A DNA stretch of 32,000 bases from Aciduliprofundum boonei T469 (GTDB lineage: Archaea > Thermoplasmatota > Thermoplasmata > Thermoplasmatales > Aciduliprofundaceae): the NCBI RefSeq assembly GCF_000025665.1, contig NC_013926.1:660001-692000 (forward strand), in the 5' to 3' direction. The position numbers and the translations under genes were made by a program. Shown in pieces: positions 4,330 through 22,273 of this stretch (its first letter is position 1; every line of letters starts with the position of its first letter). The notes below the pieces were generated by a model. That model saw only the letters and a list, made by a program, of their open reading frames with translations, ran no database searches and was not told the DNA's origin.

Positions 4330-4874
4330 GGAGAATAGGGCTTGTAGAGCTTATGCTCTATTCCCAAGGAATCCAAAATTTTTCCTACAATGTAATTCAC
4401 AACATCATCTATTTTTTTAGGTTTCAAATAGAATGCAGGTACAGGAGGTAGAATATCGACACCTATTTTTGAGAGCTTGAGCATGTTTTCAAGGATAATT
4501 GGGCTAAGAGGCGTTTCTCTTGGTACCAAAATTACCTTTCTTCTCTCTTTTAAAGCCACGGAGGCAACGCGAGTTATGAGATTATCCGCTATGCCGCAGG
4601 CTATTTTTGATAATGTACTCGTAGAGCATGGTACTATTACCAAAGAATCAAACCTCGTAGTTCCAGAGGCAATATCCGCATCCATTTCGTTGTTATTGTA
4701 AATTCTTGAGGATAAATTTATTAGGTCCTCCTCTTTGTAATCTGTCTCGTATTTTATAATCTTCTTAGCGTTTTCGGAGAGTATTAAGGAGACATCATGA
4801 GCTTTTAAACTTTCCAGAAGTTTTATTCCCAGTATGCTGCCTGATGCACCTGTTATACCAACGATTATTTTCAT
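4323..4874 (-). CDS. ubiX: flavin prenyltransferase UbiX
   Basis: Taking the ATG at 4874 as start gives [21 protein letters not shown]..., the canonical flavoprotein N-terminus. [21 protein letters not shown] and LVPRETPLS blocks match the UbiX/Pad1 family. The tracked start at 5060 adds 62 unsupported residues and collides with the divergent nhaP start. Confidence 0.88.
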
Positions 4875-4953
4875 GATGGAACAAAATGATAAGAAACTTA
4901 AATAATATTCGGTTGAGATATGTATATATACGAGCAATATATCTCCCCCTTCG
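4875..4953. promoter_or_regulatory. divergent promoter region between ubiX and nhaP
   Basis: A 79-nt AT-rich spacer with TATA-like tracts (cttaaataatatt) and a perfect palindrome, GTATATATAC, at about 4921..4931. Confidence 0.4.
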
Positions 4954-6249
4954 GTGATATCATTGGATTTCAACATATCTTTGGTACTGCATTCCGAGGT
5001 GGATGTAGTCGCATATGCTGTTCTCATAGTCCTTTTATTTGGCATAATATCACTTCTCATTAGTAGAAGAACTAAGATATCCTACATACCCATACTCATT
5101 CTTTTTGGCATTCTAATAGGGCCCGTGTTGGGCATGATTAATAGAAAATTAGCTTTGAGTTTGTTTGAATATGTAAGAGTTTTTGGTCTTTTTATGATTC
5201 TATTTGCTGAGGGGTATCATTTGTGGAGGTCTCTTTTAGTTAAAAACTTTACCACGATAGCCCTTCTCGATACCATAGGTCTTTTGATAACTGCCCTCTT
5301 AGCAGGTTTTATTTTCTCGCTAATCTTCCATGTACCATTCACAGTTGGATTCCTCTTTGGTGCTATAGTGTCTGCAACTGATCCCGCTACTCTTATACCC
5401 CTATTCAAACAGCACAAGGTTGATAGAAACATAGAAACGGTTATAGTTACAGAATCTATCTTTAATGATCCTCTGGGTGTGGTGCTTACATCTCTTGCTC
5501 TTGCTTTCGTCATGCCCCAAGCACCCAGTGCACAGCCAGTAGAAAAATTAGCAGAGTATGTAACTCTCTATCCCGCTGCGATTTTGTATTTTCTTTATCA
5601 GGTGGGAATGTCCATAGTGATAGGTGCAATTGTTGCTTGGATAGGATATGAGGGAATAAAGAAGATAAAACTCAGAAAATCTCCATATGTGGAAATCTTA
5701 GCAATAACTCTGGCTTTTGGTGGATTTGTGTTAGGAGAGGTTGTGGGTGCCTCGGGATTTCTGGTTGCAACAGTGATAGGAATCTTGCTGGGTAATTATG
5801 ATGATTTCTTCCATGATAACTCCCCCGAAGTCCAGCATGCTGTGAGGTGGCACATGCATTTTAACGATGTTCTTGCCATGCTTGGAACTATATTCATATT
5901 CATACTTTTAGGAGCCAGTTTGAATCTCTCTATGCTGGATCCACTGATGATTTTGTACGGTTCAATAATAGCCCTTTTCATAGTATTCGTTGCCAGGCCT
6001 GTGGCGGCCTTGGTCATACTGCCTAAATGGAAATTCAAGAAATACCTATTCATCTCTTTAGAAGGGCCTCGTGGAGTTGTACCTTCGGCCTTGGCCAGCA
6101 TGCCTCTTATGCTTGGAATAGCGTATAATAATACTCAGATGATACACTGGGGTGAGCTCATTTTAAGCACTACGATTATAACGGTGCTGTTGACAGTGAT
6201 AATAGAGACCCTGTGGGTTCCCTATTTGAAAAAGAAGCTTCTTAGTTAA
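4954..6249 (+). CDS. nhaP: Na+/H+ (cation:proton) antiporter, CPA1 NhaP type
   Basis: Polytopic membrane protein. ATDPATLIPLF and ESIFNDPLGVV (the ND motif of electroneutral CPA1 exchangers) are present. The 4954 start is a GTG and is uncertain by a few codons. Confidence 0.85.
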   Translation: MISLDFNISLVLHSEVDVVAYAVLIVLLFGIISLLISRRTKISYIPILILFGILIGPVLGMINRKLALSLFEYVRVFGLFMILFAEGYHLWRSLLVKNFTTIALLDTIGLLITALLAGFIFSLIFHVPFTVGFLFGAIVSATDPATLIPLFKQHKVDRNIETVIVTESIFNDPLGVVLTSLALAFVMPQAPSAQPVEKLAEYVTLYPAAILYFLYQVGMSIVIGAIVAWIGYEGIKKIKLRKSPYVEILAITLAFGGFVLGEVVGASGFLVATVIGILLGNYDDFFHDNSPEVQHAVRWHMHFNDVLAMLGTIFIFILLGASLNLSMLDPLMILYGSIIALFIVFVARPVAALVILPKWKFKKYLFISLEGPRGVVPSALASMPLMLGIAYNNTQMIHWGELILSTTIITVLLTVIIETLWVPYLKKKLLS

Positions 6250-6288
6250 TCCAAAAGTTTTATTTTCTATAACAAATTTAATCTTACT

Positions 6289-7059
6289 ATGATAGCTTTG
6301 ATCTCATTACTTTTAGTGATACTCTTCTCCGTAATTTTTGTTAGAATAGGGGCAGTGGCTCTGGAGATGACAGGTTTATCAAGAGAAGTGGCTGCATTTC
6401 AGGCACAGTCAGCATACACGGGAGTTGGATTTACTACATCAGAATCGGAGTATGTGGTATCGCATCCTGTTAAAAGAAAGATAATTAGAACGCTGATGTT
6501 TGTAGGTAGTGCGGGGATAGCATCGGCTATTGCTATGCTGTTTCTTAGTTTTGTTGGAAAAACAGAGAAAGAGAGTTTGGATAGTTTAATATATTTGGGA
6601 ATAGGTCTTATTTTACTTTACTTCTTTGCCCGATCAAAATTTATTGACAGGGGATTAAGGTACATAATAAAGAAATCACTGCGGAAATTTACAAAGTTGC
6701 ATGTTTATGATTATGAGCTTCTCTTGGGGCTTTCTAAAGGATACTCTATTGGTCAATTTAAAGTTAGGCGCAATAGTTGGCTGGCAAATAGAAAGCTCGA
6801 ATCTCTTAAGTTGAAAGAAGAAGGTATTCTAGTTTTGGGTATTCACAGGAAGAGCGGAGAAAGAGAGATCTTTATAGGTGCTCCGAAAGGGGAGGTTACA
6901 ATAAATCCTGGGGATGTACTCGTGTGCTATGGACCCGATGAAGGCATAAAGAGGCTGTCTCACAGAATAAAGGGTAAGAAGGGAGATAAAGAGCATAGAG
7001 AGGCCGTGAAGATGGAAAAGCTCAGGCAGATGGAGGAGAAAATGGAGATATCCAAGTAA
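6289..7059 (+). CDS. small membrane protein with a C-terminal RCK_C (TrkA-C) domain
   Basis: Three predicted TM segments in aa 1-115. The C-terminal half (WLANRKLESLKLKEEGILVLGIHRKSGEREIFIGAPKGEVTINPGDVLVCYG) matches the TrkA-C fold pattern. See the finding on its pore-loop-like segment. Confidence 0.7.
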   Translation: MIALISLLLVILFSVIFVRIGAVALEMTGLSREVAAFQAQSAYTGVGFTTSESEYVVSHPVKRKIIRTLMFVGSAGIASAIAMLFLSFVGKTEKESLDSLIYLGIGLILLYFFARSKFIDRGLRYIIKKSLRKFTKLHVYDYELLLGLSKGYSIGQFKVRRNSWLANRKLESLKLKEEGILVLGIHRKSGEREIFIGAPKGEVTINPGDVLVCYGPDEGIKRLSHRIKGKKGDKEHREAVKMEKLRQMEEKMEISK

Positions 7060-9395: not shown

Positions 9396-9409
9396 TTTTT
9401 ATTTTTAAG
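9396..9409 (+). terminator. oligo-T tracts after the flippase gene
   Basis: atttttatttttaag (two T5 runs) begins directly after the stop at 9392..9394, at the convergent junction with the next gene. Confidence 0.3.
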
Positions 9410-10829
9410 AAATTAGCCCTATTTTTAATAAGCTTTTCTCTTCCCTATTTTTCCTCACATCTATAACCTGACCTGTTATTTCTGTGGTGATAAGCAATAG
9501 CGTTGCATAGGCCACGGTTTCGGGCTTTAAGAGAGTTTCGAGCGGCTCTTTTCCGAAATTTTTGAATCTCATAGGAGTTGCAGTTCTTTCTGGGCATATA
9601 GCATTAACTTTTATACCCAATTCATAAACCTCATCAGCTAAGGCCTGCATTAAGTTTACCACCGCTGCTTTTGTGGAGGAATATATTGAATATCTCTCTC
9701 TTCCCCTAGTATAAGAGCTAGAAGTAAAAAGAACTAAATGCCCTCTTGTAGTTTGAAGATAGGGTATACTTGCCTTCGCCACATTCACTGTGCCATAATA
9801 ATTTGTATCAATTATCTGGTGTATATCTGTTAAATTCATATTCTTTAAAAAGCCCATTATAAGAATCCCTGCCGTATTTATGACAGCATCAATTTTTCCA
9901 TATTTTTCATTAACCTTTTCAAGAGCGGATACCACATTCTCAAAATTAGTTATATCAACTCCATTTTTTCTTGAAAATGAATATGGTACCCCACCATATT
10001 TCTTTACGAGGGTGTATATCTTTTTACCAATACCACTGCTCCCACCAAAGATTATAATAGTTTTCCCTTTTAATTTTTCAAGGGAATGAAGAATATAATT
10101 CTTGTCAGAAAATGATAATATCGTTCTTTTTAGCTGAAATAGCCTATCTGCCAGATATATCTCACTCTGATAAGTGATTTTTATATTGTTGATATCCCCT
10201 GCTACAGTCTTAACAGGACCTAATCTGTACTCTAGAAAGAGCGAGCAATCATCTGTAAAGTTATTTTTTCCATCTTTTTCTGCTAATTGATGGGCTTTTA
10301 ATATAGAATCTCTCCAAAATCCTTGAGGTGTTTGCCCTCTTCTAAGTTTACTTCTATCAGGTATATCCTCAATTTCATCATTTTCTCTTATTCTTACTAT
10401 AGTATCTGCTGTCGGAATTACAGTATCTACTGCAGGATATACTTTCAAAGCATCAATAATTCTTACTATTATCTCTTTGGTTACAAAAGGTCGTACAGCA
10501 TCATGGATAAGAACGTAACGGACATTTTCATCTGTAGCATATACACCTATCCTGGAACTTTCTTGTCTTGTGTTACCTCCATAAAGAACTTTTTTCACTT
10601 TTTTGTAATCATTTTTCTTAAATAACTCTAAAAAGTACTCATACCATTCAGGATTGACTACTACAAATATTTCATCCACAAATGCACAATGCTCAAATAC
10701 ATCTAGGGTATGCTCAATTATTGTTTTTCCTGCCACCTTCATAAATTGCTTTGGTTTTTCCATTCCAAACCTTATCCCAGATCCACCTGCTAGGATTATA
10801 GCAACTGTTTTTTCTAATTTCGGAGACAT
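9405..10829 (-). CDS. bifunctional IspD/TarI-like cytidylyltransferase + short-chain dehydrogenase (Bcs1-like CDP-ribitol synthase)
   Basis: The N-terminal half (AIILAGGSGIRFGMEKPKQF, IHDAVRPF, RGQTPQGF) matches the IspD/TarI family. The C-terminal half (IIIFGGSSGIGK, NTAG, YSSTKAA) is a classical SDR with a YxxxK motif. The domain order and the 474-aa length match Haemophilus Bcs1. A GGTGA Shine-Dalgarno-like site lies just upstream of the ATG. Confidence 0.8.
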   Translation of the reverse strand: MSPKLEKTVAIILAGGSGIRFGMEKPKQFMKVAGKTIIEHTLDVFEHCAFVDEIFVVVNPEWYEYFLELFKKNDYKKVKKVLYGGNTRQESSRIGVYATDENVRYVLIHDAVRPFVTKEIIVRIIDALKVYPAVDTVIPTADTIVRIRENDEIEDIPDRSKLRRGQTPQGFWRDSILKAHQLAEKDGKNNFTDDCSLFLEYRLGPVKTVAGDINNIKITYQSEIYLADRLFQLKRTILSFSDKNYILHSLEKLKGKTIIIFGGSSGIGKKIYTLVKKYGGVPYSFSRKNGVDITNFENVVSALEKVNEKYGKIDAVINTAGILIMGFLKNMNLTDIHQIIDTNYYGTVNVAKASIPYLQTTRGHLVLFTSSSYTRGRERYSIYSSTKAAVVNLMQALADEVYELGIKVNAICPERTATPMRFKNFGKEPLETLLKPETVAYATLLLITTEITGQVIDVRKNREEKSLLKIGLIS

Positions 10830-10870
10830 AAATTCTCACCTACTGATTGATAAAAATATAGGTATATTTA

Positions 10871-10966
10871 ATTTTTTAGAATGTTCTCAACAATTTCTAT
10901 AACTCTATCCGATGCCCTACCATCCGGATTACCGTGGATAAAATGCAAGCATTCTTTGTAAATGTA
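10871..10966 (-). pseudogene. orphan C-terminal gene fragment (glycan-enzyme-like tail, no start codon)
   Basis: My hand translation of the minus strand gives YIYKECLHFIHGNPDGRASDRVIEIVENILKN followed by a stop at 10868..10870. The frame has no ATG and closes at a stop at 11024..11026. The NP-DG-x-AS-x-R-[IV] tail resembles C-termini of UDP-GlcNAc 2-epimerases and TagF-family enzymes. Confidence 0.35.
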
Positions 10967-10986
10967 GTAGGAAATCCTAGTGAGTA

Positions 10987-12180
10987 TTATCCCCAGAAAT
11001 ATTTTATAATTCTCTCCCTCGCTTTATTATCTTTATAAGTAAACATTACATCTCTCAGCCAAAGTCTCTCTTTTTCCCACTTTTTAGGATCATTTATTGC
11101 GCCCTCTAAAGCATTTATGAGGGGTGGGATGTCTTTCACCTTATCTCCTGGTGTCCATAATTCAAAAGGTTCAACTACAAAGCCTCTTTTTTTCCTGTAT
11201 TCTTCTATATCAGGGATATAGTAAATGATAGGTCTGTTTAGAAGCAGATACTCTATCCAGACCGAGGAATAGTCACTAATTAAGATGTCTATGGCTTTGA
11301 AAAACTCGTTAATGGTAAAGTTATTTTTTCGAAGTACATCATTAGAGAGAATTTTTATATTCTCGATACCTCTTTTCTTAAGAAGATCTCTGAAATACAC
11401 TTCATCTTTTCTATGAGGTTTAAAAACAAAAAGAATATCATTTATTTTTAGGAATTTGATAAAATCATCATTTTTTATAATTTTCATTATTTGGTTTTTT
11501 GTATATAAATTATTAAAAGATCTAAAAGTCGGAAGATAGAATAATTTATACTCAAATGTGTCAATAGATACCTTTAATGCATCTTCAAGTAACTTGAGAG
11601 AATACTTTTCGCCTATCTCAAAAATAATATCATCTCTAGGCATACCTGTAATAATTATTTTAAATGGATTAATTTGATAAAATGATGAATGTAGGACTCT
11701 TGTAAAATGGGATGTAGTAACAGCATAATCAAAATACTTCCATGTCTCTGGCATTATTGTAGCGTCCACATAAGCTCCCATCTTCTTTTGAAGCGGAATA
11801 CCATGATCTAAAAGTATTTCTATTTGATTCTTACTTTTCCACCAAGCCCCACCAGTTACGGAGGTCACAAAATATCTTGCTTTTGTTATATATTTTAACA
11901 TATCCTTTGTGTTTTTTCGAAAAATAGCTATACCCCCATCACGCACAACACGTTCGAAGCCATCAGGGGTATCTACGATCCATACACATTGAAAATCTTC
12001 ACATATTTTAGTTTCCCGCATTTTTTGATAAAGATAATATGGGTTGTCATAATAATCATATTGTGAATAGAATAAAATAATATCTTTCTTGGGTATTATA
12101 TTATTCAAGGATTTTATTAATCTCTTGGCAATCTTTGAATCTTTCATAATGTCCCGTATTTCTCTTTTTTTATTAAACAT
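10987..12180 (-). CDS. CDP-polyol:polyol-phosphate transferase (TagF/TarL family, Glyphos_transf)
   Basis: LFYLPTFR (family motif YxPTxR), KPH, ISDYSSVWIEYLLLNRPIIYY (family motif DYSSxxFDYxxLxRPIIFF) and a C-terminal KDNKARERII are present. Confidence 0.8.
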   Translation of the reverse strand: MFNKKREIRDIMKDSKIAKRLIKSLNNIIPKKDIILFYSQYDYYDNPYYLYQKMRETKICEDFQCVWIVDTPDGFERVVRDGGIAIFRKNTKDMLKYITKARYFVTSVTGGAWWKSKNQIEILLDHGIPLQKKMGAYVDATIMPETWKYFDYAVTTSHFTRVLHSSFYQINPFKIIITGMPRDDIIFEIGEKYSLKLLEDALKVSIDTFEYKLFYLPTFRSFNNLYTKNQIMKIIKNDDFIKFLKINDILFVFKPHRKDEVYFRDLLKKRGIENIKILSNDVLRKNNFTINEFFKAIDILISDYSSVWIEYLLLNRPIIYYIPDIEEYRKKRGFVVEPFELWTPGDKVKDIPPLINALEGAINDPKKWEKERLWLRDVMFTYKDNKARERIIKYFWG

Positions 12181-12258
12181 TTCTATTGAAAACTTTGGAA
12201 GGTAACCTTTTTATAATCTATTTGTATTGAAAGCTTGATTATATATGAGGCGATAGAT
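12181..12258. promoter_or_regulatory. divergent promoter region (TagF-like gene / nucleotidyltransferase gene)
   Basis: A TATA-like ctttttataatc lies at 12207..12218. GAGG at 12247..12250 sits 8 nt before the ATG at 12259. Confidence 0.45.
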
Positions 12259-13263
12259 ATGGTAGTAGGGATAATATTGGCAGGCGGCTATGGAAAGAGA
12301 TTGAAGCCCATAACAGACTATGTACCGAAGCCCTTGGTGGAGATAAAAGAAGGTTATACAATTTTAGACAAGCAAATATTGGATTTGAAGTATGCAGGTG
12401 TAGATGAGGTATACCTGCTTGTGGGCTATTTGTGGGAGAAGATAAAGGAAAGGTATGGGGATATGTGGAATGGAGTTAAGGTAAATTATTTAGTGGAAGA
12501 TGAGCCTAGAGGGACATTGTGGGCTTTAAGAAATGCATTTTCAAAATTGGAAGAGGATGCGGTTGTCAGAAATGGAGATGTGGTGGCAGATTTCAATATA
12601 AGGGAAATGCTTGAGAGAGCAAGAAAGAATGAGAATGCCTTGCTGACCATAGCAGGTACCAGAATGCGCTCGCCCTACGGCATAATAGATTTCAAGGACG
12701 ATTTAATACTCTCCTTCAGGGAGAAACCCGTATTGGATTACTACATAAATGCAGGGATTTATTACATAAAGAAAGAGACCTATGAGTATTTCAATAGGGA
12801 GTTTACGGATAAGGCTGTGGAGCGCACGGTATTTCCACTTTTAGCAGAGATGAGGAAGGCATACATATTCCGCGAAGACAATGTATTCTGGCAGAGTGTG
12901 GACAGTTTGAAGGATTTGGAGAGGGTAAGAGAGGAGTACAAGAACAGGGAAGACAAGCCGTGGGGGTATGAGAAGATGATAATATTGACTGATAAGTACA
13001 TGGTAAAAGAGCTGTACATAAAGAAGGGATATGAGACCTCAATGCACTATCATCCAAGGAAGGATGAGACAATGCACATAATGTATGGGCAGGGATATAT
13101 AGAAGTGGAGGGCGAGAAAAATGTGGTGCGTAAAAACGATGTTTTCAGGATTCCACCGAATAAGAAGCATAGGATAGTGGCAGTGGAGAATATGCTTCTC
13201 TACGAGTATTCAACTCCTCATCCTGATGACACTGTACGGTTGAAAGATCCTTATGGTCGATAA
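12259..13263 (+). CDS. sugar-1-phosphate nucleotidyltransferase with a C-terminal cupin (ManC-like)
   Basis: MVVGIILAGGYGKRLKPITDYVPKPL is the NTP_transferase signature. The C-terminus (KPWGYE...HYHPRKDETMHIMYGQGYIEVEG...IPPNKKHRI) is a type II PMI-like cupin. I prefer the ATG at 12259, which has a GAGG site, over the tracked TTG at 12235. Confidence 0.8.
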   Translation: MVVGIILAGGYGKRLKPITDYVPKPLVEIKEGYTILDKQILDLKYAGVDEVYLLVGYLWEKIKERYGDMWNGVKVNYLVEDEPRGTLWALRNAFSKLEEDAVVRNGDVVADFNIREMLERARKNENALLTIAGTRMRSPYGIIDFKDDLILSFREKPVLDYYINAGIYYIKKETYEYFNREFTDKAVERTVFPLLAEMRKAYIFREDNVFWQSVDSLKDLERVREEYKNREDKPWGYEKMIILTDKYMVKELYIKKGYETSMHYHPRKDETMHIMYGQGYIEVEGEKNVVRKNDVFRIPPNKKHRIVAVENMLLYEYSTPHPDDTVRLKDPYGR

Positions 13264-14468
13264 TCACTTATGATTCTTTTAATGAAATTTACCATGTTTT
13301 TTGAAACGTTTTTAACACTATTCTCTCTCATTATATTAAGTGCTGTGTTTAATAGAGCGTTATATTTCGGGTAATTATTTAAAACACACATTGTACAGGA
13401 TGTAATTACACTTTGAAGACTATCTTTTGTATATCTTATCACATTTTCTCTAAAGTTGTAATGTGGGGCATAGCTCTTAGGTATTAATATAGGAACTCCA
13501 TAAGAAATCGCATCGTTTATTGCTCCTGAAATTTTATATGTGCCATACACAGCATTGGCAGAATCTGGCAAGATTACAAAGTGAGCTTTTAGAAGCCATT
13601 TTTCGAATATCTTCTCATCTACAAATTCTTTAAAGCGAATTATGATCTCACCATTTGGATCAATTTTCTCAATTCTGTGTTTAATATCATCATCCATCAT
13701 TCTACCCAAAAGAATTAATTTGGCTTTTGTGCGTAAACTTGGATTTTTATCTATAGCATTATGAAATGAATCGATGATATGTAAGTAATCTTTACCATAT
13801 TTTTGTATCACTTTTCCAGGTACTACAAAATAGACAGATTTTTTAGATTTAACTGGTTTTATATCTCTTCCAATTCTTGAAGGTATTACAATATGTGGCT
13901 TATTTTTGAGAGATGGAGGTATTTTAACATATTCTCCAAGGGTGATAAAACCGGATATTCTCTTGGAGACATATAAGTTATATAGTAAATCCAGAAATTT
14001 CCTTTCTTTTATATTTCTTAGGTTAAGACTATGAATAAACCATAGTAGATTCCAGAAATGTGCATTATGAATTATGATAACAAACTTTTTGTTACTCCTC
14101 CATCCCCACTCAAGGAGAGGATGAAAAAAAGGAGGCTCTGTGAGGGTATTTATTATAATTACATCAGGATTTAATTTTTTCACTTCATACTGTAAGTTTT
14201 CTCCCTCTTCTTGTAGCTTTAAAAAAAGTTTAGGATAGTGTAATAGCTTTCTCTTCTCTTTTGACCAAGTATATCTATAAGAATTTTTAATTATTATTAG
14301 GTTCAGTTTATCACTGTATGCAAATTTACTTTTTTCTATAACTCCACGAGATGCTATAACAGTTATGTCATATATATCAGAAAGTGACTCCCCTATTTCA
14401 TACATAGTATTAAGAACATCATGATGCCAAAAAGCTTCTATAATGGCAATCTTTGGTTTTTCACTCAT
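13251..14468 (-). CDS. putative GT-B fold glycosyltransferase (divergent)
   Basis: Two Rossmann-like halves are visible (KIAIIEAF..., NPDVIIINT, IIIHN; then VYFVVPGKV...KAKLILLGR...AHFVILPD...ISGAINDAISYGVPILIP). No canonical EX7E motif is present. An AGGAGG site precedes the ATG. It overlaps the convergent cupin gene by 13 nt. Confidence 0.45.
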   Translation of the reverse strand: MSEKPKIAIIEAFWHHDVLNTMYEIGESLSDIYDITVIASRGVIEKSKFAYSDKLNLIIIKNSYRYTWSKEKRKLLHYPKLFLKLQEEGENLQYEVKKLNPDVIIINTLTEPPFFHPLLEWGWRSNKKFVIIIHNAHFWNLLWFIHSLNLRNIKERKFLDLLYNLYVSKRISGFITLGEYVKIPPSLKNKPHIVIPSRIGRDIKPVKSKKSVYFVVPGKVIQKYGKDYLHIIDSFHNAIDKNPSLRTKAKLILLGRMMDDDIKHRIEKIDPNGEIIIRFKEFVDEKIFEKWLLKAHFVILPDSANAVYGTYKISGAINDAISYGVPILIPKSYAPHYNFRENVIRYTKDSLQSVITSCTMCVLNNYPKYNALLNTALNIMRENSVKNVSKNMVNFIKRIISDYRP

Positions 14469-17093: not shown

Positions 17094-17114
17094 CTCCTTT
17101 AATTATAATTTTCG

Positions 17115-18200
17115 CTATGGTGGCACGAATCTCCTCAATCTCTTTAGCATCTCTAATTTCTCCTTTCCCCCTATGTTTGCCTCTTCAATGCTGAGCTGCA
17201 AGATCTCTATGCTTTTATCATAAGCTCTGCGGTCAACGGGTTTTGGAACGCCATCCTTGCCACCGAGAGCGAAGGAATATTTAACAGGATCCTTCCAGGA
17301 GATTTCAGTGCCGTATATTACCTCTGCTATGTATGCAAGGGCACGAACTGTGGATGGGCCTATACCCTTTATGCCTATCAACTCCTCATAATTTCTTGGC
17401 TGAATCTCATAGGCTTTGAACAATGCACTCCAATTTATTGTCCAGGGCATTGTCAAAGTTTTTGTGCCTGTAAAATCGTCCAGCGTTTTCTGCTTTCTGT
17501 CTTTTACCTCGGCTATCATATTTTTGAGCTTTTGGGGATTATCATTCACGATGTCTACAGATACTTTTCGTGCATCTTCACTCTTTCTTGCACTCATATC
17601 AAGCACTTTTTTCTCCAAAGTATCTGATATTATGCCGCTTCGTGGATCATTTACAAAGTTCTTTATCCCGTAGAGCCAGTGGTATCTTCTTGCATACCTG
17701 CTCTTCTCATTCATCCCCTGCTGGATAACAACCCACCTGCCATGCTCGTCTATCACCATTGCGTGGTGATAAAGCTGGTATCCATCTTGGAGCACCGTAT
17801 TGTCAACCTTCGCAACCATTTTGCTCGCATACTTCAATTTTTCAATCTTTTGAGAGGATATGCTGAATTCTTCTCCAATATTCTCAATCTCTTTTGGAGT
17901 TCTTCTGGATACAGCTCCCTTGCCGCCTACAACAATGAGTCCATCCTCCGGCTTAAGAGCTTGCTTTAATGCGCCCATGGTCACAGTGGTAGTGCCTGAA
18001 GAGTGCCAGTCAAAACCTATGACGCAGGAAAACGCCTGAAACCAATAAGGGTCAGATAACCTCCTCAATACCTCATCTGTTCCATACTCCATTTCTATGA
18101 TTTTTATTATCTCCCTTGAAAGGGGAACCATTCTCTTAAATAGCCATCTTGGTGCATGCCCGGGATGCAATGGTAAATTTGCTATGCCGCTTCTCTCCAT
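17115..18200 (-). CDS. DUF763-family protein containing a helix-hairpin-helix motif
   Basis: The N-terminus (GIANLPLHPGHAPRWLFKRM...LSDPYWFQAFSCVIGFDWHSSGTTT) matches my recollection of DUF763 (PF05559). LIGIKGIGPSTVRALAYIAE at aa 273-293 (17322..17384) is a textbook HhH motif. Confidence 0.7.
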   Translation of the reverse strand: MERSGIANLPLHPGHAPRWLFKRMVPLSREIIKIIEMEYGTDEVLRRLSDPYWFQAFSCVIGFDWHSSGTTTVTMGALKQALKPEDGLIVVGGKGAVSRRTPKEIENIGEEFSISSQKIEKLKYASKMVAKVDNTVLQDGYQLYHHAMVIDEHGRWVVIQQGMNEKSRYARRYHWLYGIKNFVNDPRSGIISDTLEKKVLDMSARKSEDARKVSVDIVNDNPQKLKNMIAEVKDRKQKTLDDFTGTKTLTMPWTINWSALFKAYEIQPRNYEELIGIKGIGPSTVRALAYIAEVIYGTEISWKDPVKYSFALGGKDGVPKPVDRRAYDKSIEILQLSIEEANIGGKEKLEMLKRLRRFVPP

Positions 18201-18206
18201 TTTCCC

Positions 18207-18947
18207 CTACACCAGGACTATTCCATTTTTATCTACATTGTATCTGAATATACCCACCTTCTCGGGATGATTGCGGACCTTCTTCACAATTAGATATTTT
18301 TCGAATCCGTTCTCTATTCTCCTCATCTCCAATTCCAAAATTATATCGACTATTTCCTCTATTCCACTTTGCGAAGTTGTGTCGTAAACATTGTTGAGCA
18401 TAGTGATTAGGGCAACACCACCATAATACTGAGCGTGCGCTTTTATCGTTCTGAGAGCGGATATGACCTTTGTTCTATCATAATTGTTCATAAAGAAATC
18501 AAGGGAATCTATGACTATACGAAACGGAGGCTTTAATTTGGAAATCTCATATGTAACCTTGGTGAGAAAGTTTACCTCCTTTTCCTCCTTTTTTCTTGCT
18601 GGCTGAAATAACTCGTTTATGGGTATGCCCTCTTCCCTGTACCTGCTTATTATGAGTTCCTTCTCCAGAACCTTCTGGTAGTATTCAACACCTATATTCA
18701 CAATTTTTATATTGGTATCCCATCCAAAATCCCTCATTGTTGCTATTATATCCTCATCTCTCTCAATAGTGGTAAAGTATATCACATTCTCCTTGCCCAC
18801 ACCTGCAGCTGCAAATTGCTTGGCAAAGAGCTCAGTTCCAGAGCCTGGAGAACCGTAAAGAAGAATTGTGTAGCCCTTTGGAATTCCGTTCATAAGGGCC
18901 TTGTTGAGAGTTTCTATGCCCAGAGTTGTGGTTTCATATGCACTCAT
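18207..18947 (-). CDS. KaiC/RecA-superfamily protein with a degenerate Walker A (predicted pseudo-ATPase)
   Basis: It has the KaiC-like layout (GIETLNKALMNGIPKGYTILLYG...), but the P-loop reads GSPGSGTE (18831..18854) and lacks the invariant Lys. A Walker B-like RIVIDSLD is retained. The family MRGxxH motif is replaced by VRNHPE. Confidence 0.75.
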   Translation of the reverse strand: MSAYETTTLGIETLNKALMNGIPKGYTILLYGSPGSGTELFAKQFAAAGVGKENVIYFTTIERDEDIIATMRDFGWDTNIKIVNIGVEYYQKVLEKELIISRYREEGIPINELFQPARKKEEKEVNFLTKVTYEISKLKPPFRIVIDSLDFFMNNYDRTKVISALRTIKAHAQYYGGVALITMLNNVYDTTSQSGIEEIVDIILELEMRRIENGFEKYLIVKKVRNHPEKVGIFRYNVDKNGIVLV

Positions 18948-19519
18948 TTCTCCTCCCCTCCTGCATCGTAAGCATCATCGCATACTAAGTTGAGCATATT
19001 TATCATCTCTTCGCTATTCTGCTCTTTCATTGAAATTATAACCATGTAGGATTCCCAGCTGCGCAGAGAAGTCACAAATATGTGCAAAAACTCAGATAGA
19101 ATTTTCAAATCGTTGTGGATTGCCATGGAATTAACAGAATCCAAAACCACTATGGCTTTTTTATCGTTATATTTTCGCAGCAGGTATTCTATTTTTAACA
19201 TTACATTTTCCAGCATCGTGGGACTCTCAATGTACAGGAATTTATCGGACATCTCTCCGGCGTTGGCCATTAAGTGTGATATGGTATCCACGAAAAATAC
19301 GCGGGATGTATCCACGCCCAGAATCTCAAGCAGGCCAACTATGTTCTTAGAAGGAATGGTGGAGGAAATATAGAATACATACAAATCATCCTTGGTTGCA
19401 AATATGTCCACAATGGCACGGAGAGCATCAAAATAGGTGTTTACATCCACATATAGAGCCAAAGAAGAGGCAGGGGGTAATTCGCTTAGTTTATCAACAA
19501 TATTTGATGATACACTCAT
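18944..19519 (-). CDS. truncated KaiC-like domain protein without a P-loop
   Basis: 191 aa. There is no glycine-rich loop where Walker A is expected (SSLALYVDVNTYFDAL). It keeps the strand-DS Walker B-like AIVVLDSVNS and the FVDTIS strand. It is start/stop coupled to both neighbours. Confidence 0.6.
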   Translation of the reverse strand: MSVSSNIVDKLSELPPASSLALYVDVNTYFDALRAIVDIFATKDDLYVFYISSTIPSKNIVGLLEILGVDTSRVFFVDTISHLMANAGEMSDKFLYIESPTMLENVMLKIEYLLRKYNDKKAIVVLDSVNSMAIHNDLKILSEFLHIFVTSLRSWESYMVIISMKEQNSEEMINMLNLVCDDAYDAGGEEK

Positions 19520-20319
19520 TATCGCACCTCCACACTTCCGCCCTTGAGCAATGGGGCCAATAGTATTCCAATGGGGGTCAAGTCCAACACATATTTTGCC
19601 CTGGAGTGGGTGGTACCTCTCATTTTTATTACTTGAATTGTGCGCAGCAAATCTCCTCTCCTCTCTAAATTACCCATCAATATGATTCCGTCAGCAATTG
19701 CCTCTTCCACCCCGTATTGAGAATAGCCGGCTGCAGAGGGTAAGAGTTCAGAAACCAACAAGGTTGTACAGCCCATATCTGATAAGGCCTTTCCAAGTTG
19801 AAGGATGAACTCTCTAATCTGCTCTCTTGAAGTTAATCTATAGCATATGGAAGTTATGCTATCTATAACCAATCTTTTTATCCCGAGTTCTTTCACCATC
19901 TTTATTATCTGCTCTACCAGTATGTTTACATCTTCTAGGGTAAATTCTAATTTTTCAAGCCCCAGCTTCACATAAATCTCCTGCAAATCCACGAATATTA
20001 GCTTTTTCTCCTTAACTAAATTTTTATCAAAAAATTCGTAGGTACTCATATTCTCTATCAATTTCTCAGGAACTTCTGTCACGGATATGTACATTGATCT
20101 CTCACCCATAAGAGCCCCTCTGGTTAAGAATTCTAAGCTCAGAGTGGTTTTTCCCGTACCACAAGAGCCAGTTATTAGAATAGTATTACCCCTAGGAATT
20201 CCCCCATTCAATATATTATCCAATCCCTCGATTCCCGTTTTGCACCTCTCTCTCGTGATTATCATTACAGGATAGTAAATTCTTAACCCTATATCTAATT
20301 TTCTAAGTTGATATTTCAT
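19519..20319 (-). CDS. single-domain KaiC-like ATPase (intact motifs)
   Basis: TGIEGLDNILNGGIPRGNTILITGSCGTGKTTLS carries Walker A (20146..20169). Also present are YISVTEVPE, the Walker B RLVIDSITS and IKMRGTTHS. An internal M19 (MIITRERCKTGIEGLD) is an alternative start. Confidence 0.85.
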   Translation of the reverse strand: MKYQLRKLDIGLRIYYPVMIITRERCKTGIEGLDNILNGGIPRGNTILITGSCGTGKTTLSLEFLTRGALMGERSMYISVTEVPEKLIENMSTYEFFDKNLVKEKKLIFVDLQEIYVKLGLEKLEFTLEDVNILVEQIIKMVKELGIKRLVIDSITSICYRLTSREQIREFILQLGKALSDMGCTTLLVSELLPSAAGYSQYGVEEAIADGIILMGNLERRGDLLRTIQVIKMRGTTHSRAKYVLDLTPIGILLAPLLKGGSVEVR

Positions 20320-21536
20320 TTAAATTTGATGAATACAAATATCGCCACTGCTCCTGCCATGAGATATAGTGCTCCCGAGAGTATGAACAATACTGCTGGC
20401 TCTATATGATAAACATAGCCTCCTATTGCACTGAATATCATTGCTGCTATGTAAGAAAGGAATAAGAACACTCCAGTGTACCTGCCCCTGTTTTCTATAC
20501 CCACATAATCTGCAATTAGTCCATTGCTGGATGGCTGCATTATAGCTTGGGCTGAGCCCGTTAGTATTGCATAGGTGAATAAAGCTATGGTGGAGGGTAT
20601 GATAAAAATAAATATGGAGAGTGCAGCCAAGAAAATGCCGAGAGTGAAAAATTTCTCCTTACCCAAGATATCCGCCTTTTTGCCAACGGGTATGCCCACC
20701 ACAACCACTATGATTGTGATTAATCCCATGGCAATTCCGTAAATTAATGGAGAAGTGTAAGTGTAGGAGTATTTGACTATAAAATATCCAATCATGCCCC
20801 CAGCGGAGGATAAAAGCATATTGACTATAAGCAATCCCTTTGCTCTGGATTTTATCTTCCCTAAAACCTTAAAGCTTTCCAAAAATCTCTTCCTGTGCTC
20901 CTTTTTGACTTTCATAGTTTCTTTGAGTTTGAATCTTATTATGGCTGATACAAGAGATAGGGCAAAGAGGGCAAAGTATCCCACTCTCATCCCAGGGACT
21001 ACCCCATATCTGTAAATTAGAAATCCGCCGATTATGGGTCCAAATATTGCGGGAATCATAGATATGTTTGTTATTGCAAAACCTTCAGCCCTTCTATTTT
21101 CTGGGAGAGAATCCATCATTATGGAGAACAGTGCAGGTTGGTATAGTAAGGCTACATTTGAAATTATCAGTCCTAAAATGATCCATTGCCAAGATGGGGC
21201 AACTGCAAATATTAATGTTGAAAAAGCCATAACCGTTGTGAAAATAACTATCATTTTTCTCCTCCCATATGCATCTGCCAAGTATCCTCCGGGAATCTGA
21301 AGCAGGGCCATCATACCAAATGTTAGGGCTCCCATAAATCCTAAAATGAGGTCACTGGCACCAAGAGCAGAGAAGTAAATTCCGTTAAATCTCATAACTA
21401 CGCTGTGACCGAAATTGAGAAGAAGCCAAGTTATGAATAAAACTCCTATATTTCCCTTAAGTATTGTGCGAAGATCATTTACGAAGTTTTTGAGATGTAA
21501 TATGAAATTTCTGAAGTATCTCATTTGCATGCTCAT
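20316..21536 (-). CDS. MFS transporter
   Basis: About 12 TM segments with the motif-A-like GGYLADAYGRRKM loop. The tracked start at 21590 overlaps the divergent regulator gene, so I prefer one of the ATGs at 21536, 21530 or 21524. The stop overlaps the KaiC-like start (ATGA). Confidence 0.8.
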   Translation of the reverse strand: MSMQMRYFRNFILHLKNFVNDLRTILKGNIGVLFITWLLLNFGHSVVMRFNGIYFSALGASDLILGFMGALTFGMMALLQIPGGYLADAYGRRKMIVIFTTVMAFSTLIFAVAPSWQWIILGLIISNVALLYQPALFSIMMDSLPENRRAEGFAITNISMIPAIFGPIIGGFLIYRYGVVPGMRVGYFALFALSLVSAIIRFKLKETMKVKKEHRKRFLESFKVLGKIKSRAKGLLIVNMLLSSAGGMIGYFIVKYSYTYTSPLIYGIAMGLITIIVVVVGIPVGKKADILGKEKFFTLGIFLAALSIFIFIIPSTIALFTYAILTGSAQAIMQPSSNGLIADYVGIENRGRYTGVFLFLSYIAAMIFSAIGGYVYHIEPAVLFILSGALYLMAGAVAIFVFIKFK

Positions 21537-21598
21537 GCACAAGCTATTATTTATCCTTTTGGAAGCAAGTTTTAAATTTAATGCTCTCATGGATTTTT

Positions 21599-22273
21599 AT
21601 GGAACTTCGAGAGAAGATAGCAGGGGAAATAGTTTTATCTTCCAAACCCGGGGCTACTATGAGAAAGTGGAGGGAGATGTTTGGGATATCTCAGCAAGAG
21701 TTGGCAAGATATCTTGGGATGTCTTCATCTGTTATAAGCGATTATGAAAGTGGCAGGAGAAAATCTCCTGGAGTTGGGACAGTTAGAAAATTTGTCAATG
21801 CCCTCATAGAAATAGATGAAGCCAAGGGTGGGGAGAAGGTGAAACAGCTATCATCCACTTATGGGGAGGAAGCCATTTTGGATATGGGGGAGTTTCCTTA
21901 CCAAATAAGCGTGGAGGATTTTATGGATTTGATTGATGCTAAGATAACAAATGAGGGAGAGTTTAAAAGACAGATTTACGGTTATACGATTTTAGATAGT
22001 TTAAAGGCAATACTCCATTACAGCTCCTTTGACTATTTGAGAGTTTATGGATGGAGCATCGATAGGGCGTTGATATTTACGGGAGTGTATTATGGGCGCT
22101 CTCCCATGGTGGCCATTCGAGCTCATCCTCTGAAACCCAGTGCGGTTGTTTATGTCTCTCCTCGCAAGGTTGATGAGCTTGCTATAAAACTTGCAACTAT
22201 TGAAGATATCCCTCTTGCAGTTACTGAGCTCGATGTTAAAGAGATAAAGAAGAGGCTTAGGGAAATAGGCTGA
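21599..22273 (+). CDS. XRE-family HTH transcriptional regulator with an uncharacterised C-terminal domain
   Basis: MRKWREMFGISQQELARYLGMSSSVISDYESGRRKSPG is an HTH_3 motif. The roughly 150-aa C-terminal domain has no function I recognise. I chose the ATG at 21599 (MELREK...) over 21581. Confidence 0.75.
   Translation: MELREKIAGEIVLSSKPGATMRKWREMFGISQQELARYLGMSSSVISDYESGRRKSPGVGTVRKFVNALIEIDEAKGGEKVKQLSSTYGEEAILDMGEFPYQISVEDFMDLIDAKITNEGEFKRQIYGYTILDSLKAILHYSSFDYLRVYGWSIDRALIFTGVYYGRSPMVAIRAHPLKPSAVVYVSPRKVDELAIKLATIEDIPLAVTELDVKEIKKRLREIG

Follow-up and report, generated by a model that had tools for sequence, protein, structure and literature searches.

KaiC-like paralogues encoded side by side in Aciduliprofundum boonei, and their relation to a neighbouring DUF763 gene and transporter gene

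Do genes that stand almost without spacing in a compact archaeal genome belong to one system? The question is raised by a 32,000-nt stretch of the genome of Aciduliprofundum boonei T469 (hereafter the window), in which five minus-strand open reading frames (ORFs) follow one another and encode, according to Pfam, which we used for the family assignment of the window proteins, a transporter of the MFS type, three KaiC-like proteins (KaiC-1, the middle protein and KaiC-3) and a DUF763 protein. A first-pass annotation of the sequence had read the five as one translationally coupled module with a divergently encoded XRE-type regulator as candidate controller. Our comparison with related loci shows that the three KaiC-like paralogues are a conserved, tightly coupled unit across divergent Thermoplasmatota. 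The proposed MFS-KaiC-DUF763 system is not supported, and the triad belongs to a kind that has already been proposed, namely a KaiC-like ATPase with inactivated homologues.

The triad and its three proteins

Homologues of the middle protein with 44-60% identity sit in triads in which a KaiC gene (about 250 aa), the middle gene (about 190 aa) and another KaiC gene (about 245 aa) follow one another, and the genes flanking these triads are unrelated. A profile scan of metagenome contigs added 80 further loci, 50 of which have at least 1 kb of downstream sequence and are called informative below. KaiC-1 precedes the middle gene at every locus having upstream sequence, and KaiC-3 follows the middle gene in 27 of the 50 informative loci, the remaining 23 showing a two-gene variant from which KaiC-3 is absent. 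The junctions within the triads span -17 to +4 nt and mostly fall between -11 and +4. When the middle proteins were clustered at 75% identity, KaiC-3 was present in eight of the 11 clusters, pilin genes in six and DUF763 in one. Measured against distant loci, the window proteins have a median identity of 66% (KaiC-1), 49% (middle protein) and 55% (KaiC-3), and the retention of such identity in distant lineages shows that all three proteins, including the two pseudo-ATPases described below, are maintained by purifying selection. The first-pass annotation had proposed to test by gene-neighbourhood analysis whether the quintet or a core subset of it is conserved; the core of KaiC-1, the middle gene and (in the three-gene form) KaiC-3 is conserved, whereas the quintet is not.

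One of the three proteins had been called active and the other two degenerate, and their motifs agree with this description. KaiC-1 (19519..20265, minus strand) is a single-domain archaeal KaiC-like ATPase with intact catalytic motifs (Pfam KaiC, PF06745, 6.5e-59; 199.5 bits against a cutoff of 26.6). Its Walker A motif (GSCGTGKT in the window, GSxGTGKT in the family), the glutamate of SVTE, the Walker B motif RLVxDS (RLVIDS in the window) and KMRGT are kept across 59 homologues. Its relatives in the PDB are KaiC CI, PH0186, PH0284 and SSO2452, and KaiC is matched with 1e-58 as against 3e-4 for RadA.

The middle protein (18944..19519, minus strand; 191 aa) has VDVNTYFD where the P-loop would be and lacks the catalytic glutamate, and an alignment of the three families shows that it ends before the C-terminal K-x-R segment. 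It matches DUF7090 (7.9e-8; 32.7 bits, cutoff 27), while its match to the Pfam KaiC profile is sub-threshold. With the AF2 model of the protein (pLDDT 89), the top Foldseek matches were PH0284, KaiC CI, FlaH, RecA and Elp456 (TM up to 0.74), the probability being 1.00 for both PH0284 and KaiC CI, and the protein as modelled adopts the KaiC/RecA fold. By its fold, its profile match and the loss of the P-loop, it is classed as a stand-alone inactivated KaiC domain (iKaiC; DUF7090/DUF7504) of the DUF7090 type. ESPTMLE and LDSxNSxAIHN...SEFLH are invariant in 71 homologues.

KaiC-3 (18207..18947, minus strand) is a full-length KaiC-like protein (Pfam KaiC, 4.2e-28; 98.7 bits, above the cutoff) with a degenerate Walker A motif, GSPGSGTE, in which the lysine is replaced by threonine, and this degeneration is fixed family-wide (consensus GxPGsGtElfAKQFA). 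The Walker B aspartate, a glutamate after strand 2 and the K-x-R segment are still present, and about 25 residues are inserted. KaiC-3 is thus predicted to be a pseudo-ATPase member of the KaiC fold and not an active KaiC. Its homologues fall into 323 clusters, and the named ones among the 120 listed come from Thermoplasmata or related archaea.

All three KaiC-like proteins score below the cutoff of every curated KaiC, ArlH or RadB model of NCBIfam. The circ_KaiC model gives 121.8 bits with KaiC-1 (cutoff 546), the ArlH model 45.6 and 52.9 bits (cutoff 215), the radB model 28.6 bits (cutoff 172) and the radA model 20.8 bits (cutoff 361), and the proteins are not classed as circadian KaiC, as ArlH/FlaH or as RadB/Rad55.

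A profile search of 1.84 billion representatives with the middle-protein family yielded 34 close members (E <= 1e-30) and 704 members at E <= 1e-10. In the wider set (for example, P0388, P0393, P0395, P0430 and P0452), the middle-type domain is also the C-terminal module of large receptor-type proteins of 900-1770 aa with TPR and Ig-like (CARDB/NPCBM_assoc/TRAP_beta) domains, and it is also paired with DUF835, suggesting that receptor-tethered versions of the same putative adaptor exist. These fusions would fit an adaptor or signalling role of the stand-alone middle protein.

Other genes were also seen beside the triad in particular lineages. At L092 (2330-2914), L093 and L094, the middle gene is followed after a 4-nt gap by a gene for a 194-aa CPxCG-related zinc-finger protein (PF19769, 2.4e-48), which replaces KaiC-3 or the pilin. 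In 28 loci (for example, L124 at 5049-6341 and L082 at 4829-6127), a 430-aa fusion of an OMP-decarboxylase/HUMPS-family domain with an RraA-like domain (OMPdecase-RraA) is encoded divergently just upstream of KaiC-1, and this adjacency is probably a lineage synteny and not a functional link.

Gene starts, junctions and a promoter-like element

The longest ORFs place the MFS gene at 20316-21590, with 21536 as its start in the first-pass annotation, and KaiC-1 at 19519-20319. The five ORFs and the tight junctions that had been described between them are all present in the sequence. The MFS stop codon TGA overlaps with an in-frame ATG as ATGA (20319..20316); KaiC-1 ends and the middle gene begins within TAATG (19521..19517), with a GGAGGTG Shine-Dalgarno-like site upstream of the middle-gene start; the middle gene ends and KaiC-3 begins within ATGA (18947..18944), preceded by the purine tract GGAGGGGAGGAG; and a gap of 6 nt (18206..18201) separates KaiC-3 from the DUF763 ATG at 18200.

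The ATGA between the MFS gene and KaiC-1 is present as a string, but it probably does not couple the two genes. Residues 1-18 of the long KaiC-1 ORF face gaps in most of the 59 aligned homologues, the homologues from close relatives have 248-255 aa, matching a start at Met19 (ATG 20265), and the alignments to PDB and Pfam entries start at residues 24-26 of that ORF. KaiC-1 therefore probably starts at Met19 and not at ATG 20319. Because the Met19 start leaves a 50-nt gap after the MFS stop, and this gap bears a promoter-like element, the apparent coupling is probably an artefact of choosing the longest ORF. The element, TTAGAAAATTAGATATAGG (20288..20306, minus strand), lies 9 nt after the MFS stop codon, and 22 nt separate it from the probable KaiC-1 start. 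The window and the related clade loci L001, L088 and L090 carry it unchanged amid diverging flanks, and it occurs once in the window against an expectation of 0.01. It consists of GAAA and TTAGATATA, centred about 29 nt upstream of the ATG, and equivalent GAAA and TA-rich boxes are found 25-35 nt upstream of KaiC-1 in distant lineages (e.g. L002, L082 and L084). We infer that the element fits an archaeal B recognition element (BRE)/TATA promoter for a leaderless or short-leader mRNA. The possibility that the motif is a repeated operator was rejected on account of its single occurrence in the window. Stoichiometric co-production, which had been read from the tight junctions of the whole cluster, fits the KaiC triad, with its conserved junctions and its proteins under selection; the junction of the MFS gene with KaiC-1 is probably unreal.

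Spacing alone does not delimit a five-gene unit, because tight junctions are common throughout the window (11 of the 20 same-strand neighbour pairs overlap or abut, and eight of these are among the 16 pairs outside the cluster) and because the co-directional run continues past DUF763 through tktN, after a gap of just 21 nt, and then tktC and a gene for transaldolase. The boundary drawn around five genes is arbitrary. The proposed five-gene translationally coupled operon does not hold: only the KaiC-1/middle and middle/KaiC-3 junctions are both tight and kept, that between the MFS gene and KaiC-1 is probably false, and that between KaiC-3 and DUF763 is tight in one clade only. In a compact archaeal genome, gene spacing tells little without comparative data, and the choice of the longest ORF can produce false stop/start overlaps.

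Between the DUF763 stop and the tktN start (about 17095-17114), CGAAAATTATAATTAAAGG has a BRE/TATA-like layout and a distance to the ATG as in the KaiC-1 element, suggesting that the transketolase/transaldolase genes may start a new transcription unit there. An Rfam scan of the window gave no structured RNA match.

DUF763, the transporter gene and the XRE gene

The DUF763 protein (PF05559; 17115..18200, minus strand) is a full-length member of its family (4.7e-134; 447.1 bits, profile positions 1-319 of 319). It is 78% identical to AciM339_0352 of Aciduliprofundum sp. MAR08-339, with which the whole region is syntenic. Scanning one genome per species with the DUF763 profile gave at least 581 loci, and the best 80, with 49-60% identity, were examined; these span Thermoplasmatota, methanogens, Bathy-, Had- and Altiarchaeota, Asgard and several DPANN lineages. 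When all ORFs of the 80 loci were searched with the window proteins, the KaiC triad adjoined DUF763 in two of them (L001 and L002), both from the Aciduliprofundum clade. Among the 80 loci of the metagenome scan, DUF763 adjoins the triad in three (L088-L090), and the triads of all other lineages are without it.

In the window and in these five related clade loci, DUF763 follows KaiC-3 at -4 to +6 nt. An internal DUF763 promoter in the 3' end of KaiC-3 was considered (TAGATAAAAA at about -30 in the window) and was rejected because it is not conserved in L001, L089 or L090. Since the spacing is tight and no internal promoter is conserved, we take co-transcription of DUF763 with the triad as probable for this clade alone. 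We rate its placement as hitch-hiking in a compact genome, DUF763 lying outside the conserved module.

A conserved DUF763 neighbourhood was likewise rejected, as the clustered neighbours of the 80 loci show lineage-local syntenies only: a response-regulator receiver (REC) gene in nine loci, Pelota with a 660-aa protein in 7-8 and an endonuclease III-like gene in five. In one Thermoplasmata lineage, DUF763 is followed by a stand-alone REC gene (L021, 6415-12125; L015, 3068-8066; L005; L040; L044). In L021 and L015 a radical SAM gene comes after it, and then, in L021, a gene for a double-KaiC+PAS protein and, in L015, one for a PAS-DUF835 protein. In a Hadarchaeum (L061, 7998-10713), DUF763 is followed by REC and histidine kinase genes. 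A recurring association of DUF763 with signalling genes is possible.

These observations bear on the idea that DUF763 was recruited in the Aciduliprofundum clade as an effector or output of the triad, to make a four-gene system. The constant position behind KaiC-3 in the window and the five clade loci, with no conserved internal promoter, speaks for such a recruitment, as do the signalling genes that sometimes adjoin DUF763 elsewhere. However, DUF763 is a highly conserved single gene of housekeeping type, found even in DPANN, most of its loci have no signalling neighbours, the REC cases come largely from one lineage, and closeness is weak evidence where tktN is only 21 nt from DUF763 on its other side. 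We consider this recruitment unlikely.

The DUF763 protein had also been described as containing a helix-hairpin-helix (HhH) motif. The Pfam HhH match is below the cutoff (18.7 against 24 bits), but the motif GIKGIGPSTVRAL is nonetheless conserved. An endonuclease III-like gene (HhH-GPD type, its identity being judged from sequence alone) lies within two genes of DUF763 in L008, L023, L059, L075 and L079, which come from Asgard, DPANN and an unclassified archaeon. This neighbour and the HhH-like motif hint at a nucleic-acid role of DUF763. The protein had no sequence match in the PDB, and its AF2 model (pLDDT 77) had no Foldseek match better than E = 0.6. DUF763 does not correspond to arCOG04290, which is a PIN/Zn-ribbon family. 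Being close to universal in archaea and of unassigned function, DUF763 looks like a conserved protein of high priority.

In another explanation, the triad would consist of recombination or repair mediators, that is, RecA paralogues like RadB or Rad55-Rad57 that act on DNA with the HhH-bearing DUF763 protein as partner. The RecA fold of the proteins, the HhH-like motif of DUF763, its endonuclease III-like neighbour in five loci of several lineages, and the names of KaiC-3 homologues among the matches listed ('RAD55 family ATPase' and 'RecA-superfamily ATPase', also 'recombinase RecA') are consistent with it, but these database names are generic COG0467 labels. Moreover, KaiC-1 is far closer to KaiC than to RadA or RadB by the PDB matches and the radB score given above, and the conserved genomic partners of the triad are pilin genes and not repair genes. 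We therefore regard a repair function as highly improbable.

The MFS gene (20316..21536, minus strand; Pfam MFS_1, 2e-38) is a neighbour outside the module. Apart from the window, only L001, L088 and L090 have it in front of the triad. In L002, the triad and DUF763 are present and the MFS gene is absent, a gene for a 562-aa secreted-type protein taking its place. In the metagenome scan, MFS and DUF763 genes were confined to three Aciduliprofundum-like contigs (L088-L090), and no MFS gene was found near the triad in any other triad lineage of that scan. The XRE-type HTH protein (21599..22273, plus strand; Pfam HTH_3, 5.2e-12), encoded divergently upstream of the MFS gene, was rejected as a conserved partner because its homologues are found near the triad only in L001 and L088, and its proposed role as controller finds no comparative support.

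It could still be argued that all five genes under the divergent XRE gene form one co-translated system that joins a transporter, a KaiC ring and a DNA-binding output, since the genes are co-directional and tightly spaced and since the order XRE-MFS-triad-DUF763 recurs in L001 and L088. However, these two loci are close relatives of the window (78-96% protein identity), with a synteny that reaches into unrelated flanking genes, and tight junctions are the norm in the window. The MFS gene is missing in L002, MFS, XRE and DUF763 genes are absent from all other triad loci, 78 of the 80 DUF763 loci are without the triad, and the conserved promoter-like element splits the MFS gene from KaiC-1. The quintet as a module thus fails to co-occur in related genomes, and the comparative data have largely refuted the five-gene system, to which we give very little credence.

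Pilin genes and related KaiC-type systems

Downstream of the triad, on the same strand and within 3 kb, 43 of the 50 informative loci have one to three genes for proteins of about 165 aa each, whose Pfam scores for Pilin_N (the N-terminus of archaeal type IV pilins) exceed the cutoff. In the 32-kb window, L001 and L002, no protein matched a pilin profile, and DUF763 here occupies the position downstream of the triad that is usually held by pilin genes.

Makarova, Galperin and Koonin are said to have proposed, in mBio in 2017, that archaeal KaiC-like ATPases and their inactivated homologues (iKaiC) are signalling hubs, this function being predicted (cited in PMC5847659). The triad resembles these hubs in pairing the gene for a single-domain KaiC-like ATPase with genes for inactivated KaiC-domain proteins, and in that fusions of the iKaiC domain to input domains exist as well. 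The triad has a fixed GxPGSGTE Walker A in KaiC-3 and an ESPTMLE motif in the middle protein, and its proteins score below all NCBIfam KaiC subfamily cutoffs.

KaiC-family ATPases have been associated with archaeal type IV pilus loci and are predicted regulators there (Makarova, Koonin, Albers 2016, PMC4858521), and the frequent adjacency of the triad to pilin genes is of the same kind. Unlike those systems, the triad has stand-alone pilin genes as neighbours, an assembly ATPase or TadC was not seen in the loci with listed genes and Pfam families, one or two genes for pseudo-ATPase paralogues accompany the KaiC gene, and the clade of the window is without a nearby pilin gene. CirA of Haloferax volcanii is also a single-domain KaiC-like protein, a regulator in the control of pilin-dependent motility; there is experimental evidence that it regulates, in a pathway dependent on pilins, the archaellum genes and so a type IV-filament system, and Walker A mutations disrupt it (PMC10983859). 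In contrast to the triad, cirA is a single gene inside the arl cluster with no adjacent inactivated paralogues. The cir genes of H. volcanii were considered as a tandem precedent and rejected, since the four genes are dispersed across the genome and do not form an operon (PMC3941300).

ArlH/FlaH has a KaiC-like fold. Foldseek matched the middle protein to FlaH (4yds), among others, and by sequence KaiC-1 and KaiC-3 match FlaH weakly, but the ArlH scores given above are far from the cutoff. No arl genes were found in the window or in the related loci with annotated genes. KaiC-1 is closest in sequence to the KaiC domains of the KaiABC oscillator, but it has a single domain of 248 aa, whereas the oscillator protein has the duplicated CI-CII arrangement (about 500 aa); no KaiA or KaiB families were found among the annotated ORFs of the window, and nothing points to a clock function of KaiC-1. 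The eukaryotic Elp4-Elp5-Elp6 complex (PDB 4ejs), which is among the fold matches of the middle protein, is one ring built from three RecA-fold paralogues with degenerate nucleotide sites, a precedent for the 2:2:2 complex suggested in the first-pass annotation. It differs in being unrelated in sequence (13% identity) and in its tRNA-related function, and the triad has, judging by its motifs, one fully catalytic subunit.

We consider it probable that the region is a three-gene KaiC-type regulatory operon flanked by unrelated genes, which are packed tightly because the small genome is compact. The reading that the sequences support best is that the three proteins form a regulatory ATPase complex of KaiC and iKaiC subunits, a kind of complex that has been proposed before in archaea; in other lineages, its genes usually lie beside pilin genes. 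The triad would have a promoter of its own and give a leaderless or short-leader mRNA, and the three proteins would be made in fixed proportion through translational coupling. They would then assemble into a complex in which KaiC-1 alone binds and hydrolyses ATP and possibly autophosphorylates, while the two pseudo-ATPases serve as partner or adaptor subunits; the K-x-R segment of KaiC-3 could reach the nucleotide site of a neighbour, and the middle protein would supply a domain of the type fused to receptor-like proteins in other archaea. The output would most likely be pilin or type IV pilus-related surface functions, as with other archaeal KaiC-family regulators. In the Aciduliprofundum clade, the housekeeping gene DUF763 would have come to sit behind KaiC-3 and the MFS gene in front of the promoter, neither taking part in the conserved mechanism.

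Several points weigh against this interpretation. The link between triad and pilins is one of adjacency only, and the usual gap of 100-900 nt suggests that the pilin genes have their own promoters; the link is also absent in the clade of the window and in its two nearest relatives (the L084 and L092 groups). The adjacency of DUF763 to the triad is stable in all five related clade loci, and with the signalling neighbours seen elsewhere there may be a lineage-specific functional link of DUF763. The metagenome loci are partly redundant, 52 of them falling within one 75%-identity cluster. Finally, complex formation and stoichiometry are predictions from sequence.

As for the form of the complex, a hetero-oligomer of the three paralogues is plausible, but the two-gene variant in 23 of the 50 informative loci speaks against an obligatory three-subunit ring and argues that KaiC-3 would not be indispensable. 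A possible but rather doubtful alternative is that no mixed ring is formed at all: KaiC-1 would be a homo-hexamer, and the two pseudo-ATPases would be transient regulators or client adaptors, KaiB-like in role. Homologous single-domain proteins crystallise as homo-oligomers (six chains in PH0284, hexamers of KaiC CI), the middle protein is without the C-terminal third that contributes to ring contacts, and the middle-type domain occurs tethered to receptor-like proteins, which, with the loci lacking KaiC-3, would suit a homo-hexamer. By contrast, the conserved translational coupling suggests a fixed stoichiometry, and Elp456 shows that three such paralogues can make up one ring. KaiC-3 also retains K-x-R, and in KaiC-type rings this segment reaches the neighbouring nucleotide site.

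A bolder extension of the three-gene operon, which we hold to be quite unlikely, is a mixed ring like Elp456 in which only the KaiC-1 sites turn over ATP and the pseudo-ATPases set the asymmetry and dock partners; such a ring would be a Thermoplasmatota-wide pilin-related surface switch that was rewired onto DUF763 in Aciduliprofundum. If this were true, it would give the first functional handle on the DUF763 family. The three-gene operon itself, if correctly read, would add a well-delimited further example of the KaiC/iKaiC modules, a proposed major currency of archaeal signalling, and would offer three small soluble proteins as a partner set, with pilins as the likely target class, in a poorly studied phylum.

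Minor observations concern the remainder of the window. If the longest ORFs are taken, the divergent XRE and MFS genes run into each other at their 5' ends (21581-21599 / 21536-21590), so that at least one of them must start further in (XRE at Met7, 21599; MFS at Met19-23). The 3' end of the XRE gene overlaps with a convergent histidine ammonia-lyase gene by 17 nt (22257-22273). A low-GC block at 9405-14468 (0.32-0.37 against about 0.40) contains four genes of surface-glycopolymer type, encoding an IspD-SDR fusion, a TagF-like glycerophosphotransferase, an NTP-transferase-cupin protein and a 405-aa protein without a Pfam match. At the syntenic site in Aciduliprofundum sp. MAR08-339 the block is absent, the transaldolase gene directly abutting the Polysacc_synt gene, and the block is probably a strain-variable cell-surface island.

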